In this document: positions 3,162-64,000 of the stretch, in pieces
Layout: each line of letters opens with the position of its first letter
How positions within the stretch are numbered: the first letter of the stretch is position 1
Source: a phage
Direction: 5' to 3' (one strand)
Assembly (NCBI GenBank): GCA_020279385.1
Contig: GCA_020279385.1_4762.2
DNA length: 64,000 nucleotides
Position numbers and translations under genes: made by a program
The notes under the pieces: generated by a model
Seen by the model: only the letters and a program-made list of their open reading frames with translations
The model's database searches: none
Told to the model about the DNA's origin: nothing

Positions 3162-3169
3162 ATATTTAT
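3162..3169 (-). promoter_or_regulatory. T4-type late promoter TATAAATA for gene 34
   Basis: Plus-strand TATTTATA = minus-strand TATAAATA ~28 nt upstream of gene 34 ATG. Confidence 0.6.
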
Positions 3170-3208: not shown

Positions 3209-3394
3209 ATGGTTAAATTTGATTTGTCAGAAGGTGCAAAATGGATAGTTGACAGAATACCTGATAAGGATTATAATTATTTTCGCGCAGAACTAAACAA
3301 TGCAATTCTGCGAGTTATGGAGAAATACGGGTATGATCGTGAAGTATCTAGCTCGTTTGATGAGTCTGTTGTTGTGAGAGTGGAGAGAACTTAA
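3209..3394 (+). CDS. hypothetical small protein (61 aa)
   Basis: ATG with RBS AAGAGGA upstream; ends just before rnh start. Confidence 0.4.
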   Translation: MVKFDLSEGAKWIVDRIPDKDYNYFRAELNNAILRVMEKYGYDREVSSSFDESVVVRVERT

Positions 3395-3396
3395 TT

Positions 3397-4344
3397 ATGA
3401 CGTATAACCCGTTTACAAAAACTACCGCTACACTTAATGATTTCTTCGATGCTCCAGAAGATAAACTGCCGGAAGGTGTGCATTTGATTGATATGTCGCA
3501 GCTTATGATTGCTACTATCTCGCATACCTTTAAACCGGAAGACCCTATTAGTGAAGGCATGATCCGTCATCTTATTCTTGACACCATGCGTTATAATATG
3601 ACAAAATTCAAAGAGCAATACCCAATTACGGTACTTGCCTTTGATTCAAGCAAAGGTTACTGGCGACGTGATATCGCCCCTTACTATAAACGCAACCGTA
3701 AGGAAAAACGAGACGCAGATCCGCGTGATTGGGAGATGATCTTTGCTGCGATCAATAAGATCACCGAAGAGTTTAAAGAGAACATGCCTTATCACGTTAT
3801 TAAGGTTGACAAAGTTGAAGCGGATGATATAATCGCTGTGTTAACTAAAAAGTTTTCTGTAGAAGGTCGCCAGGTGCTAATCAACTCCGGCGATGGTGAC
3901 TACACACAGTTGCACAAATACAAAAACGTGAAACAGTGGGCGCCAGTACAGAAAGCATGGAAGAAATGCAAATATGGTAGCCCTTACAAAGACCTTATGG
4001 TAAAATGTGTTAAGGGTGACGCAAAAGACGGTGTAGCTTCGATCAAGTGCCGTAGTGATTTCATTATCTCACGACTGGAAGGAGAACGAGCTAAACCAAT
4101 TGCAACCAAATGGTTAGAGCAAATTTTCGATGCCGAAGATCCAAAGTCTTTGATGACAGAGGAAGAAGCACGACGCTTTGACGAAAACCGCGAACTTATT
4201 GATTTTGAATTTATTCCTGATAACATCGAATATGAAATTTTGTTAGCATGGGAAAAATCTAAACCAGCACCACGCGGTAAAATTTATAACTATTTTGTAA
4301 CAAATGCGTTAGTTAAAATGTTGCAGAAAATTGGTGAGTTCTAA
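3397..4344 (+). CDS. rnh: RNase H (5'-3' exonuclease / flap endonuclease)
   Basis: 315 aa; motifs WRRDIAPYYKRNR, EADDIIAVL, GDGDYTQLHKY, PRGKIYNYF colinear with T4 RNase H. Confidence 0.9.
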   Translation: MTYNPFTKTTATLNDFFDAPEDKLPEGVHLIDMSQLMIATISHTFKPEDPISEGMIRHLILDTMRYNMTKFKEQYPITVLAFDSSKGYWRRDIAPYYKRNRKEKRDADPRDWEMIFAAINKITEEFKENMPYHVIKVDKVEADDIIAVLTKKFSVEGRQVLINSGDGDYTQLHKYKNVKQWAPVQKAWKKCKYGSPYKDLMVKCVKGDAKDGVASIKCRSDFIISRLEGERAKPIATKWLEQIFDAEDPKSLMTEEEARRFDENRELIDFEFIPDNIEYEILLAWEKSKPAPRGKIYNYFVTNALVKMLQKIGEF

Positions 4345-4354
4345 GGGTTGACAT

Positions 4355-4951
4355 ATGAAAGAACTTGAATTAAAATACTATGCACACTCACAAATTGGCG
4401 TCGAAACAATCTGTGATTTGTGGGTAGCAATGTATGACGGGTACAATATCGTAGATCATGCTAACACACTAAAACACGAATTTTATTATGATACCGAAGA
4501 ACATGCACTGCGTCGAAAAGGAATTTATGCTCGACTTGACGTTAATAGATCATTGATCATGGTCAAAATAGGTGATGGTGAATCTGGACTATTCAACCGA
4601 GAAGAAATTACTTTTTCAACAATGGATGATTTTTATCACTATGTTGATAGTCTAGGCGTAAACTCCGACCTTATCGTTCCTTTATTGCAAGTAATGACAT
4701 ACCGCAAGTCATTGACACTTGACCTTGAGGGTGCTATAGTGGAAATGTGCAAAGACACTTTATATTATTGCAAAGTCGGTGAAGGGATGGGCGATGCTCA
4801 CTATGAACTTGAGTTCGAGTTAAAATCAGGTGACGAAAAAGCACTTGACATTATCCGAGAAATGATGCTAAAATATGTTGGTGACGATTTACGTCCTAGC
4901 GAAATCTCAAAAGCTGAACGTGGTTTTCAATTAATGACTAAAGAGGGTTAA
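4355..4951 (+). CDS. CYTH-domain (triphosphate tunnel metalloenzyme / CyaB-like) protein
   Basis: 198 aa; N-terminal ExExK motif (KELELKYY), paired Arg (LRRKG), C-terminal acidic ExExE-like strand (YELEFELK); inserted between rnh and dsbA relative to T4. Confidence 0.55.
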   Translation: MKELELKYYAHSQIGVETICDLWVAMYDGYNIVDHANTLKHEFYYDTEEHALRRKGIYARLDVNRSLIMVKIGDGESGLFNREEITFSTMDDFYHYVDSLGVNSDLIVPLLQVMTYRKSLTLDLEGAIVEMCKDTLYYCKVGEGMGDAHYELEFELKSGDEKALDIIREMMLKYVGDDLRPSEISKAERGFQLMTKEG

Positions 4952-4955
4952 TATT

Positions 4956-5231
4956 ATGACTGAACAGAAAAAAGAAAAAGTAGTATTTGATGAAGCAGTA
5001 CACGGAAATACCCTGGCACAACTGATTAAAGAAGCCAGCGATCAGAAAACCATTCAAGAAGCATATGGCGATAAGATCAAAGAGATCAAACAGCGTGCTA
5101 AAGAAGAATTAGGCGTAGATGGTAAAATGTGGGGCATTCTGTTTAAACTGTATCACCAGCAACAGCGCGAAACCTTCGAAGCAGAACGCGACGAAGCGGT
5201 AGAACTCTATGATCGGGTGTTCAATGCTTAA
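4956..5231 (+). CDS. dsbA: double-stranded DNA-binding protein DsbA
   Basis: 91 aa; FDEAVHG...LAQLIKEASD...ELGVDGKM...ELYDRVF matches T4 DsbA pattern; RBS AAGAGGG. Confidence 0.85.
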   Translation: MTEQKKEKVVFDEAVHGNTLAQLIKEASDQKTIQEAYGDKIKEIKQRAKEELGVDGKMWGILFKLYHQQQRETFEAERDEAVELYDRVFNA

Positions 5232-5487: not shown

Positions 5488-6165
5488 ATGATCAGAAACC
5501 GTCTTCCTCCAGATCCAGATATGCGAATTAATGCTAAATCTGTGTATATGTTATATTGCATGATGAAAGCTCATATGAACGGGCGTTATGATTGCGTAAA
5601 ATATAATTGGAGGATGCGGTTGTCTGATGCCGCATTCAATAAACGCAGAGATAAGTATTATTTCGCAAAATTAGCGGAAAAGTACAATCTAAGAGAATTA
5701 TACTTCTTATTCCTAAGCAATCTGGTAGCCAATACCGATGCATGGGTAGGTGAAATCACCGATGTTGACGCATACGGCTTTTATATGGAATACATAGGAA
5801 AGATAACTGATGCAGCAACACGATTTGACGATGACATTAAAAGTCTGGTATACTTCTCAGAGAAACGCGGGGTTACTCTTAAAGAGCTAATTACATACAA
5901 TCCCGCAACCGAAACTAGCGGTATCTTTAAACTACTGCAAAATCGGATTATATCGTTTGAGTCGTTTATGTTGTTAGATAGCTTTCTAAATATAATCGAC
6001 GAACACGATAAGGTAGCCAAAGACTTGATTTGGCAAACTTATAGTGTTAAAATGAAGGCGTACAAGAAACTACTTGTTATTGACGCCGCAAAAGCAAGAG
6101 CATTATTTGTTAAAGTAGTTAAAGAGTGTAAAGAAATATCGAGGTTAAAAGGTGAAAACATATGA
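5488..6165 (+). CDS. 59: helicase loader gp59
   Basis: 225 aa; KSVYMLYCMMKAHMNGRYDCVKYNW...SNLVANTDAW...FKLLQNRIISFESFMLLDSFLNIID colinear with T4 gp59. Confidence 0.9.
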   Translation: MIRNRLPPDPDMRINAKSVYMLYCMMKAHMNGRYDCVKYNWRMRLSDAAFNKRRDKYYFAKLAEKYNLRELYFLFLSNLVANTDAWVGEITDVDAYGFYMEYIGKITDAATRFDDDIKSLVYFSEKRGVTLKELITYNPATETSGIFKLLQNRIISFESFMLLDSFLNIIDEHDKVAKDLIWQTYSVKMKAYKKLLVIDAAKARALFVKVVKECKEISRLKGENI

Positions 6166-6748
6166 TCCTGAATTGTATGCTCGTTGTCATGAACTCTTTA
6201 AATATGATAACGGTAAGCTGATTCGCAAGATATCGACAAACCGAAAGCATAAAGTCGGATCTAGAGCGGGTGGAGTTAATCCTAGTCATGGATACAGATT
6301 GGTGTGTATCGATGGTAAACATCATAAAGAGCATAGAATAATTTTCTTTATGCATCATGGATACATGCCAAAATACGTTGACCATGTTAACCGAATTATA
6401 ACAGATAATCGGATTGAAAACTTGAGAGATGCGAACGAGCAACAAAACTCAAGAAATATGGGTAAACAGAAAGGTCGATCGTCTGAATATATCGGTGTTA
6501 GTCTTTATAAACGAGATGGTAAATATGTTGCCAATATTCAGGTCGAAAGAAAGAAGTTGATATATTTGGGAATATATGTTCATGAGAAAGCGGCAGCACT
6601 TGCGAGAAACTTTGTTGCTGATGCTATAGACCCAAACTTTTTCAACAAAACAGAAGTAGTTGACATTTCTCCCGAAGAGATGTTAGAATTTGAAAATAGA
6701 AAGCCAAAACTGTTAGATATAATTGATAAAGTATTGACAAGCAATTAA
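6152..6748 (+). CDS. free-standing HNH homing endonuclease (HNH_3 + AP2-like DNA-binding domain)
   Basis: 198 aa; GTG start with GAGG RBS; HGYRLVCIDGKHHKEHRIIF...VDHVNRIITDNRIENLRDANEQQNSRN HNH motif; EYIGVS...KYVANI...IYLGIY...EKAAALARN AP2-like; inserted between 59 and 32. Confidence 0.8.
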   Translation: MKTYDPELYARCHELFKYDNGKLIRKISTNRKHKVGSRAGGVNPSHGYRLVCIDGKHHKEHRIIFFMHHGYMPKYVDHVNRIITDNRIENLRDANEQQNSRNMGKQKGRSSEYIGVSLYKRDGKYVANIQVERKKLIYLGIYVHEKAAALARNFVADAIDPNFFNKTEVVDISPEEMLEFENRKPKLLDIIDKVLTSN

Positions 6749-7845: not shown

Positions 7846-7873
7846 TTGACATGCTGATGTTAGGATGTATAAT
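7846..7873 (+). promoter_or_regulatory. sigma70-type early promoter (TTGACA-16-TATAAT) with conserved leader
   Basis: TTGACA 7846-7851, TATAAT 7868-7873, leader acaaacatcgaaacaaaggagga before ATG 7904. Confidence 0.7.
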
Positions 7874-7903
7874 ACAAACATCGAAACAAAGGAGGATAAA
7901 ATT

Positions 7904-9082
7904 ATGTTAGTACGTCAAGCACATGAGATTCGTATAGAAATAAAAGGAAACACGAAAACTCCCTTCTATTGGGAAAATGTTGTAAAAAATTCATGTTTGG
8001 AAGTTGGTTATTCTTTCATGGGGTTTGTTGGAGAATGGTCTGGTCTCAAAACAAAAGCTCTTATATTATGTAATAACAAGCATGAATACACATCAACTCT
8101 AGCAAATATCAGGAAAAAAGTTTCGTGTAAGAAATGTGTGGTTGATTCTCAAAGATTAAACCTAAACCATGTGATAGAAAGAATAAAACAAGAAACAAAC
8201 GATGTATTTGTTGGTTTTGTTGGTGGGGAGTATAAAAATAGCAGAACAAGACTCATTATGAACTGTGCAAACGGACACACATACCAACCAACATATACAG
8301 ATTTCATTCATCAAAAAACAAGATGTCCTTTATGTAACGGTGGCAAGATGTATGATAAAGAAGATTCCTTATCTTATATAAATGAAAATAAAGGAGATTA
8401 TAAATTTTTGGGTATAATTGGGGAATGGAAAGGAACAAAAACTAAACTTAAATTTGAGTGTCCTAATAATCACATTTACGAACAAAGTTATGATAAGTTC
8501 AAACTAGGTCGTCGGTGTCACAAATGTAGCGGAACAGCACCAATAACAAAAAGTGACCGATTAAAACAAATTGAAAAAATATGCGAAACCAACAGACTAA
8601 AATTTATTGGGATTTCAGGAAAGTGGAAAGGTGCATTAACAAGAATACTTCTGACATGCGAACGTAACCATGAATGGGTTGTAACTATTGATAATTTTGT
8701 TAATCGCGGAACACGCTGCCCGTTGTGTTCTAAGCATGGTTATCAGGCATTAAAGACAGGAACTCTTTATATACAGAAATTAACCAACAATGATTCCTTT
8801 GTTGGCGTGAAATTTGGAATAACAAACAAAGAAACACATGAGCGCATGAGAAACCAATCTCGTGTTTCAAAGTTCGATCACGAGATCTTTTATGAATTGA
8901 CTTTACAAGATGGTCAAAAGATCTTAGAATTAGAAAACAAAATCAAGGAAGCGATGAAAGGTAAAACTTCCTATATCTCGAAAGAAGATATGCCGGATGG
9001 CTGGACAGAGACAGTAGCGCCGTCTGAATTGAGCACTATCATGTATATCGTAAAATCTTTTGAAAAAGAGTTGACAGCGTAA
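7904..9082 (+). CDS. protein with four tandem Zn-ribbon repeats and C-terminal GIY-YIG-like (T5orf172-type) domain
   Basis: Four ~50-aa repeats of form F(V/L)G..GEW.G.KTK...C...H.Y.......C..C; C-terminus LYIQKL...FVGVKFGITNKETHERMRN...DGWTE; start set at ATG 7904 (track start 7865 lies inside the promoter). Confidence 0.6.
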   Translation: MLVRQAHEIRIEIKGNTKTPFYWENVVKNSCLEVGYSFMGFVGEWSGLKTKALILCNNKHEYTSTLANIRKKVSCKKCVVDSQRLNLNHVIERIKQETNDVFVGFVGGEYKNSRTRLIMNCANGHTYQPTYTDFIHQKTRCPLCNGGKMYDKEDSLSYINENKGDYKFLGIIGEWKGTKTKLKFECPNNHIYEQSYDKFKLGRRCHKCSGTAPITKSDRLKQIEKICETNRLKFIGISGKWKGALTRILLTCERNHEWVVTIDNFVNRGTRCPLCSKHGYQALKTGTLYIQKLTNNDSFVGVKFGITNKETHERMRNQSRVSKFDHEIFYELTLQDGQKILELENKIKEAMKGKTSYISKEDMPDGWTETVAPSELSTIMYIVKSFEKELTA

Positions 9083-57251: not shown

Positions 57252-59261
57252 TTATGCCTGGTTAGCTGGACCGATAATTTCGTCAAAGTCAGCACCAGTT
57301 GCAACAGCAGTGAAATTGAGCATGATATAGTTGATCGATTTTGCTGGTTTGATGAACATACTAGCAACAAATTCATTACGATCAATTACATCCGGCGTGT
57401 TGTTCGTGGTGTCGCATTGTACTCGGAAGTCATAAATGCCGCCCAGAGAGCGAATCGTGCTGAGATATTGCGAAACCTCCATACGGAAGGAAGCGCGAGT
57501 AAAGTTATCGTTGTTTTCAAACAGTTTGTATTTGCTTGAATCGCCGATATTCTTTTTCAGCATGTTAAACAGACGACGAACGTTAATTCGGTCAAACGGG
57601 CTAGGAACAGTCGTAGCGGTTTTATCACCCATCAGGATAAACCCTTCACCACCAGCACCGATCACCGGGTTAATTGCGGCCTGATACAGACGATCGCGGT
57701 GCGCCTTGCGAGGCTCAATTGCCAGTTTAACCACGTTCATGATCTGACCACGGTTATAACCTGCCGGACTCATCCACGGCTGGGATACAGCATCAGTACG
57801 AGCGCACAAACCAGCAATATCAGCAGCCAACGGAACCCAACGGTTTACGTCGTTGTATTTGTCATACTGATATTTGTAGTTACCATCAATAACCGCGTAA
57901 GTGGTATTAATGTTCATGTTGTTTTCATTATAGTTTCCTGAACCTTCGCGCCATGCAATCAGGTTATCAATTGCGGTAGTCACCGGAATATTAACAACAG
58001 TGCTACGCGGCGGAGAAACCATTACTAAGCAATCCTGACGCTCATCACCGATGGAAACAGCATGTTTCTGTACGGTAGAGAACGCATCGCCTTCGCCAGC
58101 ACATGCACCAGCGATCAACAGGTTTACGTGAATAGATTCACGTTCAGCAAACAGATCCCAACCTTGCATCATCGCACCGATGAACGGATCAGCACCAACT
58201 CCACCAGTCGTTGCTTCGTTAGCAGAAACACCACCAGCAAGAGAGATAATACCACTGAAACCATCTACCCACCCTTGAGCGGTTGCATAGATGTACTGGC
58301 TAGAACCACGAGCAAAGAAGTCGTCCATGTAGATAGAATTTCCGTATACGTCTTTATCCCCTTTCAGAGTAGACAGTACATAGGATTCTACCACAACACC
58401 ATCGCGACGAACAATAAATGCATATTGATTATCATTCTGCGGTGCATATGGAATCAGGTTGCGTGCTGCGGCACGAGTTCCGCCGAACGGATACATAGTT
58501 AATTCAGGTGCTACCGCGCCACTGAACGCGCTACGTGCCAGAATTTCAACTTCCAGCGAGTTGCCAATCTCACCAGCATAGATCGCGCTTACCGCTGGCA
58601 TATCATACTTCTGGAGTTTAGTCAAGAAAGTCTGATTTGTGATATTGGCGCGGGAAGTTTCCAGATCCGTTAACAGAAGACCGGAATCAGTAACAATTTT
58701 AGTTACTGACAGCGCCGCACTACCGTTACCTGACGAAGAAGTGAACTCTGCCGTCCAACCGCCATCAAGTTCTGGATATACACCGATTGCTTTAGCGTGA
58801 GCGATAATTTTACCAGTTGGGATAAATACGCCCTTAACTTTACCATCACCATCACCATCAACTTTAGTTACTTTACCAGCCGTTTCAATATCTTGACGGT
58901 TATGTTTAATCTTGATGGTATCGCCTACTTCATAGTTTGAACCTTCGTTTGTGATTTCAAACTCTACGTTACCAGCTAGGGCAGTTGCGTTTTTTGCTTT
59001 TTCTTTATTGAGTACACGAACAACACGCAGGTCATTGCCATACTGGAGGAAGTTAGCCCCGCTCATGAAATAGTCTGCGGTGTTATTATCCGGCTGACCA
59101 AATTTATTAACTAATTCAACTTCATTAGTTACTTGAACAATCTGGAAAGCTGGACCCCATTGAAATTTACCTACCAGCGCCGCGCGACCAGTCGCAGATT
59201 GCACAATGGTAGTGGAGAGAGTAGTTTCTTTCGTTTCGAAACCCGGTGATAATAGAGTCAT
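57252..59261 (-). CDS. 18: tail sheath protein gp18
   Basis: 669 aa; synteny and length (T4 gp18 ~659 aa). Confidence 0.85.
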   Translation of the reverse strand: MTLLSPGFETKETTLSTTIVQSATGRAALVGKFQWGPAFQIVQVTNEVELVNKFGQPDNNTADYFMSGANFLQYGNDLRVVRVLNKEKAKNATALAGNVEFEITNEGSNYEVGDTIKIKHNRQDIETAGKVTKVDGDGDGKVKGVFIPTGKIIAHAKAIGVYPELDGGWTAEFTSSSGNGSAALSVTKIVTDSGLLLTDLETSRANITNQTFLTKLQKYDMPAVSAIYAGEIGNSLEVEILARSAFSGAVAPELTMYPFGGTRAAARNLIPYAPQNDNQYAFIVRRDGVVVESYVLSTLKGDKDVYGNSIYMDDFFARGSSQYIYATAQGWVDGFSGIISLAGGVSANEATTGGVGADPFIGAMMQGWDLFAERESIHVNLLIAGACAGEGDAFSTVQKHAVSIGDERQDCLVMVSPPRSTVVNIPVTTAIDNLIAWREGSGNYNENNMNINTTYAVIDGNYKYQYDKYNDVNRWVPLAADIAGLCARTDAVSQPWMSPAGYNRGQIMNVVKLAIEPRKAHRDRLYQAAINPVIGAGGEGFILMGDKTATTVPSPFDRINVRRLFNMLKKNIGDSSKYKLFENNDNFTRASFRMEVSQYLSTIRSLGGIYDFRVQCDTTNNTPDVIDRNEFVASMFIKPAKSINYIMLNFTAVATGADFDEIIGPANQA

Positions 59262-59292: not shown

Positions 59293-61613
<2,321 letters not shown>

Positions 61614-61626
61614 AATAAATTACCTC

Positions 61627-62460
61627 TTAAAATTCTCTTACAATACGTGGACCCGGTGGAGTCGGTGCAACTGGTATTGGAATATCACTAGAATATGATT
61701 CTTTGATAGTTCCGTCCCAATCTTCTTGCTCGACGTCACGTTTAACGACCTCGTGATCCACTGATTCAAAATTACCGCTAGGATTCAATTCACGAGAATT
61801 GGCATGAAAATCAAGATAAATCGTTCTGATTTCCCCCTTAACGTCGGTAGCTGGAGGATATATAAACCCGATAAATTCGAACATAATGGTCCACTCAAGA
61901 CGACGACGAGAAAACTTATCTTCGCCTACCTGTTCATCTGGAGTAATAGAACTAATTGTGACCTGAATATCTCGATCAATCCATACATCATTACCGTGTA
62001 GTTCTTTAATCTTACAGTTAAAATGAGGCTGGAAGTAAGGAAGAATCTGTTCAATTATTTGAAACATATCATCTTCGTTACGCGTATAAATCCCTAACTC
62101 GAAAGTAAACTTATATGGTACAGGATTATATTGTGTTACGCTCCTGATTCCATCAGCCGTATATTTTGGTACTGTCTTATTTGCAATATTGGTTTTAAAG
62201 TTCTGGGCGTATGTCATATCAATCAAAGAAAGACACATACGCGGTAAAATAGTTTCTACCTTTGCTACGTCTTCCTCACTTGAGATATTGTTATATTTGT
62301 CCAGACTCATCATGAATTTTTCTTTCTTTGCGTAGGTGATAGGAACTTTAATAAACCGCTCACCGTCACTACGCACCCTTTTAATTTGTACGCCGGAGAA
62401 TAAATTACCCAGCAATACAATATACCGTCTAATTGACGAATTGTAAAAATGTGAAAACAT
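61627..62460 (-). CDS. 15: tail completion / sheath stabiliser gp15
   Basis: 277 aa; synteny and length. Confidence 0.75.
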   Translation of the reverse strand: MFSHFYNSSIRRYIVLLGNLFSGVQIKRVRSDGERFIKVPITYAKKEKFMMSLDKYNNISSEEDVAKVETILPRMCLSLIDMTYAQNFKTNIANKTVPKYTADGIRSVTQYNPVPYKFTFELGIYTRNEDDMFQIIEQILPYFQPHFNCKIKELHGNDVWIDRDIQVTISSITPDEQVGEDKFSRRRLEWTIMFEFIGFIYPPATDVKGEIRTIYLDFHANSRELNPSGNFESVDHEVVKRDVEQEDWDGTIKESYSSDIPIPVAPTPPGPRIVREF

Positions 62461-63216
62461 TTATTCATATCTCCATGTAGGAAACTTATCTGAGAGAAGT
62501 CTAGCTTTAACCGTTTTATAACTTATACCAAACATTTTAGCTGCATCACTCAAAATATAAAATTCCATATCGTCGATGAAGAATCTTTTTGCCCTAAAGT
62601 GTTGTTTTCCTCTCGGTGTATTTTGCGTTATTGCTGCCACATGTTCTGGGGGTAGTTTTCTCCCTGTTAATTTTGCCGCAACCTTCTCTCCTATATCTGG
62701 TCGTTTCTTTCCTCGCCACGTTTTACCTATTTTGAACTTGTGTTCTTCTGTGAACTTTCTTCCTGTGTTTGCCTTCTTTAGCGCGTCTATCTGCTTCTGT
62801 GATAGCTTATGACCTTTGAATCTTGCGCTAACCTTATCTCTAGATTCTTGCTTCCATACTCTATTTCGGTTTGCTTCTGCGTGTCTTTCGCTTGCAAGTT
62901 TTCTTCGTTCTTCGCTCATCCCAGCGTGAGTATTTCCACCTTGTCCACCAACCGAAACATTATAGGTATCTTCTCTTTTTACAAATTCCTCTGTAACTAT
63001 TTCTCTTTCTGCTTTCCTTGCCTCTTTCCATGAGTCAAACGTTTTGAGAATTGTTTTTGTGAAGTTTTCTATCCCGTTCTTTTTAATAGACCTCTTAAGA
63101 GTCAATCCACTACCCATATAAGGATCTTGACTTATGTCACCATCATACCCACGAATGCCAACATATATCTTACCATTTATATTGTTCTTTATTTCGTATA
63201 GATAATAGTTTTTCAT
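62461..63216 (-). CDS. free-standing GIY-YIG homing endonuclease (Seg-like) between genes 15 and 14
   Basis: 251 aa; N-terminal YLYEIKNNINGKIYVGIRG GIY-YIG motif; basic repeat region; ends with HTH-like module. Confidence 0.75.
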   Translation of the reverse strand: MKNYYLYEIKNNINGKIYVGIRGYDGDISQDPYMGSGLTLKRSIKKNGIENFTKTILKTFDSWKEARKAEREIVTEEFVKREDTYNVSVGGQGGNTHAGMSEERRKLASERHAEANRNRVWKQESRDKVSARFKGHKLSQKQIDALKKANTGRKFTEEHKFKIGKTWRGKKRPDIGEKVAAKLTGRKLPPEHVAAITQNTPRGKQHFRAKRFFIDDMEFYILSDAAKMFGISYKTVKARLLSDKFPTWRYE

Positions 63217-63256
63217 AAGTCATTAGATCCTTATATTATATCAATACAAGTATTTA

Positions 63257-63997
63257 TCAAAAATCGGCGAAAGGTGAACCCTTGCCATTAATAGGATCAA
63301 ACGGATCAATAAAATCTTGTCCTTCGATTCTGAATTGCTTATCTTCTTTGTACTGATCTAAGTTGATATCTGTTAACCCGTCCAGATTAGTGATCGGTGC
63401 AAGATCCAGATCCGCAAACTCATCAACATTAATTCCCTCATTGCGTTGTAATTCTGGTCGCAATTCCTCACCGCTATACACGAATTTCTCTGCAATAATT
63501 TTACGCATGGCATTTTTGCCAGCCTGAAAAAACGGCTGATATGGCTCGACGTAATTGATTTCAAAGAGATCATTACTCATTGGAATATAAATTAAGTCAC
63601 CTGATTTTGGCTCTTGATCATCTACTTGATGCTTGAATAGGTTGGGGTTAACCGTAAAAGTTAATTCATCATTAGCTTGATACCCGAAACTAGAGAAGAA
63701 ATTACCCGCTCCTTCATACCCATCAAATGAGTTAATATAAGCCGCAAATTTCCATGCTTTAGTAAATTTGCTTTGAACATCCTCACCAAAGATCATATCT
63801 GGTTTGACAAATTCACGAGGGATGTAATATAATTCTACACCTCGCATCTGAATAGCTTCGGCGACCATAACGTCGGCTAACGTCTGGGTGTTTGTATGAC
63901 GGTTGAAATTTACGTAAGGATTGAGAATCTCGGTTTGTCGTGTATTCTCATAATCCTTTTGCGATTCAAGGCGAGCAAAAAGAGTGTTGTTAAACAT
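63257..63997 (-). CDS. 14: neck protein gp14
   Basis: 246 aa; [39 protein letters not shown] colinear with T4 gp14. Confidence 0.85.
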
Positions 63998-64000
63998 ATG

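Follow-up and report, generated by a model that had tools for sequence, protein, structure and literature searches.

The CYTH gene between rnh and dsbA

The window, the whole 64,000-nucleotide stretch of phage DNA analysed here, is a segment of a Krischvirus genome (RB49-like, Straboviridae). Between the genes rnh and dsbA it carries an open reading frame (ORF) of 198 codons, the product of which is supported, by profile matches and by its predicted fold, as a member of the CYTH/triphosphate tunnel metalloenzyme (TTM) superfamily. By analogy with characterized relatives, we put at somewhat better than even (roughly 0.55) the probability that this protein is an active TTM phosphohydrolase of the two-metal kind, expressed early and with a small triphosphate compound as its substrate. 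The gene and its two neighbours are as follows.

4355–4951, + strand: CYTH/TTM-domain gene, ortholog of RB49p245 (ORF; Pfam CYTH; PHROG 14893; AlphaFold2 model with YgiF as top structural hit)
3397–4344, + strand: rnh, T4-type RNase H/5′–3′ exonuclease, upstream neighbour (Pfam RNaseH_C 2.6e-37, 5_3_exonuc_N 4.6e-18)
4956–5231, + strand: dsbA, late-transcription double-stranded DNA-binding protein, downstream neighbour (Pfam Phage_DsbA 5.4e-22)

The ORF opens with an ATG at 4355, 10 nucleotides past the rnh stop codon and preceded by a Shine–Dalgarno-like AAGGG, and closes with TAA at 4949–4951, 4 nucleotides before the ATG of dsbA; gp33 and then gp59 and gp32 follow dsbA according to Pfam. 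The original prediction held that a 198-residue ORF intervenes here between two genes that adjoin each other in T4. Both parts are correct, since the ORF is present and the T4 genome (NC_000866) has an 8-nucleotide gap between rnh and dsbA with no gene in it. The 2.1-kb stretch at the CYTH gene is 96–98% identical to Ec_Makalu_002, Whisky, JSE and RB49.

A tblastn search of 50,697 phage records recovered the gene in 59, all of them Krischvirus or unclassified RB49-like phages; an rnh–dsbA region of this type also occurs in 59 records, which makes the gene universal in the genus. A search of 5.8 billion proteins gave 43 clusters, exhaustive scanning of 1.84 billion cluster representatives with HMMER gave only 16 hits at E ≤ 1e-3, and a scan of IMG/VR for further family members returned three Krischvirus contigs only. 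The carriers are Krischviruses and a few uncultured T4-like relatives. All phage-type homologs with readable context (Skers, Phi1 and the protein clusters P0039, P0042, P0043, P0044 and P0047) immediately precede dsbA-33, and on every contig long enough to show it rnh lies before them. In the uncultured relatives DsbA and gp33 are 70–83% identical to those of the window and the CYTH protein is 29–45% identical; the gene is therefore of long standing in the lineage, and its evolution outpaces that of its neighbours by far. The nearest cellular relatives (P0045 and P0046) stand in unrelated contexts, the one next to an archaeal PRK-family gene and the other next to a Mur ligase gene, and give no functional hint. 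That the ORF is beyond chance follows from its retention in the 59 records, a score above the Pfam gathering cut-off and a ratio of non-synonymous to synonymous substitution rates (dN/dS) of 0.1–0.35.

Fold and active site

The assignment to the CYTH family, made originally from short motifs, is borne out by a match to Pfam CYTH (PF01928) at 30.3 bits against a gathering cut-off of 23.2, in which residues 2–190 cover profile positions 2–178 of 179, and by the fold hits of an AlphaFold2 model. This model, built from the family alignment (predicted local distance difference test score 92, predicted template-modelling score 0.84), is an antiparallel β-barrel tunnel with a C-terminal plug helix, and every top hit in the Protein Data Bank (PDB) is a TTM protein. 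Foldseek placed E. coli YgiF first (E 9e-13, TM score (TMq) 0.79), with other TTM proteins at 0.60–0.65 and class IV adenylate cyclases at about 0.47. YgiF, an inorganic triphosphatase, is also the only solved structure found by sequence, at E 0.025 with the single protein and E 0.005 with a 19-member profile. The PHROGs database places the protein in the unannotated family phrog_14893. The relationship itself has long been on record: RB49p245 is already annotated "similar to ygiF" in the RB49 RefSeq record, a few GenBank records name the ortholog inorganic triphosphatase or adenylate cyclase, and the CYTH/YgiF-like identity is essentially a known annotation, public for about two decades in RB49-type phages. 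The CYTH/TTM family is structurally well understood, and the identification as such adds little.

Two of the motifs first pointed out, the N-terminal ExExK (KELELKYY, residues 2–9) and the C-terminal ExExE-like strand (YELEFEL, 150–156), are invariant in all homologs. The paired arginines proposed as a further signature did not hold up: R53–R54 sits in a short helix, is not the R-x-R motif of TTM proteins and varies among homologs, with H for R53 in one allele class and K or Q for R54 elsewhere. In the study of YgiF and AtTTM3, metal site 1 is E160 and metal site 2 comprises E4, E6 and E162, with K69 also named (PMC4641920). The active-site set of the phage protein consists of E3/E5/K7, K71, R82/E84, R117, E151/E153/E155 and, in the plug helix, K186/R189, all invariant in the family of 19 members. 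E3, E5 and K7 are conserved in 19 of 19 and in distant relatives as well; E151, E153 and E155 align with the CELELEL strand of YgiF and are invariant across the phage subfamily. Most active-site residues stay unchanged out to cellular relatives at 25–30% identity. Along the β-strands, the face bearing the active residues has near-zero entropy, and the opposite face and the helices are variable.

Several features set the phage protein apart from YgiF, to whose CYTH domain (PDB 5A60/5A61) it is only 23% identical. It consists of the CYTH domain alone, with no CHAD match in its 198 residues, whereas YgiF has 433 residues and a polyphosphate-binding CHAD domain at 221–433 (PMC4641920). It has an extra invariant lysine on the tunnel face, K40, its β3–β4 hairpin region is two residues shorter, and the R56-x-R58 strand of YgiF becomes Y58-x-R60-x-D62. 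Judged by domain content, it is apparently not an equivalent of YgiF, since the CHAD domain is absent and no NCBIfam family matches.

The change in strand 3 deserves closer attention. The R-x-R pair on this strand includes the catalytic arginine (YgiF R56, AtTTM3 R52); an alanine mutant of R56 strongly inhibits catalysis, and the neighbouring arginine (AtTTM3 R54) is dispensable (PMC4641920). Canonical relatives read G-x-x-L-R-x-R here, whereas the phage subfamily reads G-I-Y58-A-R60-L-D62, so that a single arginine, R60, remains whichever register is chosen. Alignments by MAFFT and hhalign put R60 at the catalytic-arginine site, with a two-residue deletion in the next hairpin; HMMER, in two alignments, puts Y58 there. 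In the AlphaFold2 model of a canonical relative (P0050), a four-residue loop (59–62) sets the first arginine, R54, opposite the invariant K67, and in the phage model a four-residue loop (63–66) sets Y58 opposite K71. The DSSP strings of these two independent models thus favour Y58 at the catalytic-arginine site, the cross-strand pairing being read from strand and loop boundaries. The opposite placement, with R60 as the catalytic arginine, is favoured by its spacing from a YYDT anchor and by hhalign, against the P0050 hairpin geometry. R60 is flanked on the tunnel face by an invariant Tyr and Asp, and the subfamily-specific K40 lies on the adjacent strand; in uncultured relatives V or I replaces Y58, and one has N for D62. 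Given this single arginine amid Tyr and Asp, the presence of K40 and the intact metal end, the sequence indicates a tunnel with a canonical metal end and a rebuilt distal, substrate-selecting end.

Allele cassettes and recombination

The gene is divided into two conserved arms and a variable body.

4355–4384, + strand: conserved 5′ arm, codons 1–10 (MKELELKYYA; metal-site-2 residues E3/E5, and K7), 93–98% nucleotide identity to all classes
4385–4801, + strand: variable cassette body, codons ~11–149, unaligned against Skers; tunnel face kept, helices and outside of the barrel divergent
4802–4951, + strand: conserved 3′ arm, codons 150–198 (E151/E153/E155 strand, SKAERG plug helix), 93–100% nucleotide identity in all Krischvirus classes

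Skers aligns with positions 1–60931 of the window in long blocks at 96–98% identity (median 300-nucleotide window 98.7%), and the only unaligned stretch of at least 30 nucleotides is 4385–4801, the body of the CYTH gene. The Skers blastn alignment stops at 4384, past which nucleotide identity to other allele classes falls to 38–44%; breakpoints near 4385 and 4800–4830 are common to all classes. Among Krischvirus backbones, clustering resolves at least three deep allele classes: the window, RB49 and Phi1 fall in class I, the clusters P0036–P0041 make up class II, to which the Skers allele (QXN69111) belongs (about 90% nucleotide identity to P0039 in the gene body), and class III is P0042. Between classes the bodies share 39–42% of amino acids and about 52% of nucleotides, as compared with 95–97% amino acid identity in the tails and 95–100% in the flanks, and the classes lie as far from one another as from P0043, which is the allele of another lineage at the level of genus. 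Synonymous divergence (dS) between classes is about 1.0–1.2 in the gene and 0.04–0.2 in flanking genes, which argues that old alleles have been moved by recombination through the conserved ends rather than diversified by recent hypermutation in place. The lower guanine–cytosine content of the class II and III bodies (32–34%, against 38.9% in the window's body and 40.6% in the window overall) is consistent with import.

For the body of the gene, class I alleles give dN/dS values of 0.1–0.35; the exterior face does not exceed 0.44, and the neighbours have 0.04–0.15. The gene is under purifying selection that is relaxed relative to its neighbours. Positive selection as the cause of the exterior divergence was considered and rejected as a gene-wide signal, dN/dS being below 0.45 throughout. 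A special protein constraint on the near-invariant C-terminus was likewise rejected, because the conservation is one of DNA, which the flanks share, and marks a recombination boundary.

Some further differences between these genomes were recorded. The next most divergent 300-nucleotide window against Skers is 58676–58975, at 71% identity. A second, small mosaic patch occupies the 3′ part of rnh (4162–4250, + strand), where Skers and Phi1 are about 58% identical to the window and P0042- and P0039-type contigs 96–100%. Positions 60932–64000 have no counterpart in the Skers regions compared; at 154.8 kb the Skers record is shorter than those of other Krischviruses (about 164 kb), and in it a baseplate wedge gene stands almost directly before the large terminase gene, which hints at a deletion or rearrangement in this record or at a gap in its assembly.

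Expression, probable activity and alternatives

All genes from 3209 to gene 32 lie on the + strand with tiny spacers. Between 2600 and 5600 this strand has 23 sigma-70-like matches where 8.6 are expected, several of them matching at 12 of 12 positions and lying inside coding sequence. They include the following two.

3249–3277, + strand: sigma-70-like promoter match, 12/12 to the consensus
3806–3833, + strand: sigma-70-like promoter match TTGACA-16-TATAAT, 12/12 to the consensus, inside rnh, candidate early promoter into the CYTH gene

The sole nearby late promoter motif of T4 type, at 3163, is on the opposite strand and faces gene 34. Taken with the run of + strand genes and the excess of sigma-70-like matches, this makes early or pre-replicative expression of the CYTH gene likely. 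Transcription would most probably precede replication, in a rightward orf61–rnh–CYTH–dsbA–33–59–32 unit. Other matches in the region include one at 4348–4376, the −35 hexamer of which abuts the CYTH start codon and the predicted start of which falls near the 5′ breakpoint, and one at 4845–4874, in the conserved 3′ arm about 80 nucleotides upstream of dsbA. The rightward cluster is headed by a conserved 61-residue ORF (3209–3394, + strand; PHROG 3594, function unknown) that follows the gene 34 late promoter motif. Between genes 59 and 32, and overlapping the end of gene 59, lies an HNH endonuclease gene (6152–6748, + strand; HNH_3 plus an AP2-like domain) which the window and Skers have and which RB49, Phi1 and two metagenomic Krischvirus contigs lack; T4 has the unrelated GIY-YIG homing endonuclease SegG in this slot, and the HNH gene looks like a mobile homing-endonuclease insertion. 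After gene 32, a 405-residue ORF (7865–9082, + strand) has four copies of the CapR-homology repeat along with a treble-clef zinc finger (Pfam PF21817, PF14311), and the ortholog in Skers carries the annotation GIY-YIG nuclease family protein.

As a small stand-alone TTM resembling YgiF, the CYTH protein may work as homology to YgiF and AtTTM3 suggests. A triphosphate-bearing small molecule would enter the eight-stranded barrel, one end of which would be shut by the C-terminal SKAERG helix, and its phosphates would be bound by K7, K71, R82, R117, K186 and R189. One metal would be held by E151 together with the substrate; the second, held by E3, E5 and E153, would activate a water molecule to take off the terminal phosphate. 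The gene itself would be a lineage-specific accessory gene, several ancient allele cassettes of which have probably been exchanged by recombination through the conserved ends. For the substrate, inorganic triphosphate (PPPi) or a short polyphosphate would be the default by homology and is a possible choice. An organic triphosphate (nucleotide or nucleotide-like) is tentatively rated slightly above it, because the distal tunnel is remodelled (Y58-x-R60-x-D62, K40) and triphosphatase activity on PPPi is already ample in E. coli. YgiF contributes only marginally to this cellular activity, the bulk of which is due to inorganic pyrophosphatase (PMC3440374), and a phage PPPi scavenger therefore looks redundant. 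The PPPi option is nevertheless kept, because PPPi could rise in infected cells through dNTP triphosphohydrolases that serve in defence (bioRxiv 10.1101/2021.04.26.441389). The mammalian 25-kDa thiamine triphosphatase (PDB 3BHD, 5A64/5A65) is likewise a stand-alone TTM of similar size, with an organic triphosphate as substrate. Its Trp-53, two residues before the first arginine of the strand, stacks on the substrate ring (PMC4641920), and Y58 is its equivalent in one register.

Several points weigh against the early-expressed phosphohydrolase proposed here. The R-x-R motif is degenerate, and in one plausible register YgiF R56 is replaced by Y58 (V or I in uncultured relatives). The NCBIfam scan matched no family at E ≤ 1, so that no equivalog name is available. 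The ortholog in MK327935 (vB_EcoM_G2494) is in two pieces, and protein cluster P0034 is a truncated form of 130 residues; these split or truncated orthologs may mean that loss of the gene is tolerated, or may be sequencing errors. The promoter assignments, moreover, are consensus matches, and a search of the literature for CYTH/TTM together with phage, anti-defense, Krischvirus and RB49 found no functional or enzymatic work.

Among the alternatives, all of which we consider unlikely, the least improbable is a role in counter-defence or host takeover, in which the enzyme would destroy a triphosphorylated nucleotide of immunity or stress and the deep allele classes would be the mark of host-imposed selection. 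Such a role would suit a gene body that alone, in 61 kb, fails to align between two Krischviruses, with at least three allele classes at about 40% identity on flanks that are 95–100% identical, an exterior that diverges around a conserved tunnel, and evolution much faster than that of DsbA and gp33 at every depth. The substitution pattern fits it less well: even the exterior face stays below a dN/dS of 0.45, so that gene-wide positive selection is absent, and dS and dN are elevated alike, which speaks for old alleles brought in from elsewhere and not for diversification in place. A PADLOC scan of the protein gave no match and hence no tie to any known system of defence, and the literature search turned up nothing related to defence. 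A more specific form of the idea, again improbable, is that the phage protein hydrolyses a triphosphorylated nucleotide that the host makes in the course of infection (for instance chain-terminating or of alarmone type), the distal tunnel with K40, Y58 and D62 having been rebuilt for a base or sugar. If so, the deep cassettes on near-identical Krischvirus backbones would reflect selection by different hosts.

With about as little probability, the protein may have become a catalytically weakened binder, a sponge or sensor of a metal–triphosphate ligand rather than an efficient hydrolase. If Y58 occupies the R56 site, as HMMER, the hairpin geometry of the AlphaFold2 models and the cellular relative P0046 have it, the proposed proton donor is missing, and loss of this arginine (R56A) is severe in YgiF (PMC4641920); the chemistry of position 58 also varies within the phage subfamily (Y, V or I). 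The four metal-binding glutamates and the phosphate-binding lysines and arginines are, however, strictly invariant down to 29% identity, which exceeds what binding alone would need, and R60 takes the catalytic site in the MAFFT and hhalign alignments.

Still less probable is an RNA 5′-triphosphatase that would act on 5′-triphosphorylated RNA (Okazaki primers made by primase, or phage and host transcripts) alongside the adjacent RNase H. The position directly after rnh in a replication cluster invites this reading, and Cet1-type and viral capping RNA triphosphatases belong to the TTM superfamily and appear among the fold hits, but structural distance speaks against it and the closest kinship of the phage protein is not with Cet1-type capping-enzyme triphosphatases. 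Least probable of all is an adenylate or nucleotidyl cyclase of class IV (CyaB type), which would reprogram the host through cyclic AMP or another cyclic nucleotide: three GenBank records call the ortholog 'adenylate cyclase', a label that stems from CyaB and YpAC-IV (PDB 2FJT, 3N0Y), which share the CYTH fold and two-metal centre (PMC4641920), but the phage protein is structurally distant (about 0.47, against 0.79 for YgiF), its closest structural or sequence kinship lies elsewhere, and it is very probably not a CyaB-type cyclase.

CYTH proteins recur in viruses (Aeromonas phages 65.2 and D3, uncultured Caudovirales, giant viruses, and the triphosphatases of capping enzymes). The other phage and giant-virus proteins reach TM scores of only 0.4–0.55 against the phage model, and tblastn at E ≤ 1e-3 recovered none of the other phage CYTH proteins; they are therefore independent acquisitions. 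Krischviruses are not known to carry modified cytosine, and we know of no phage TTM with an established substrate. For jumbo phages, the proposal has been made that their CYTH triphosphatases break down unmodified nucleoside triphosphates (PMC7824862).

The replacement of alleles at a single island and the Y-x-R-x-D strand are, in the literature searched, new. For the bench, the interest of the phosphohydrolase proposed here lies in a TTM subfamily confined to phages, its two-metal centre intact and its substrate strand rebuilt, encoded throughout a genus within an early replication and transcription cluster, at the only hot spot in 61 kb where alleles are replaced like cassettes. Its substrate, if found, would show which triphosphate compound matters in T4-like infection of E. 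coli.
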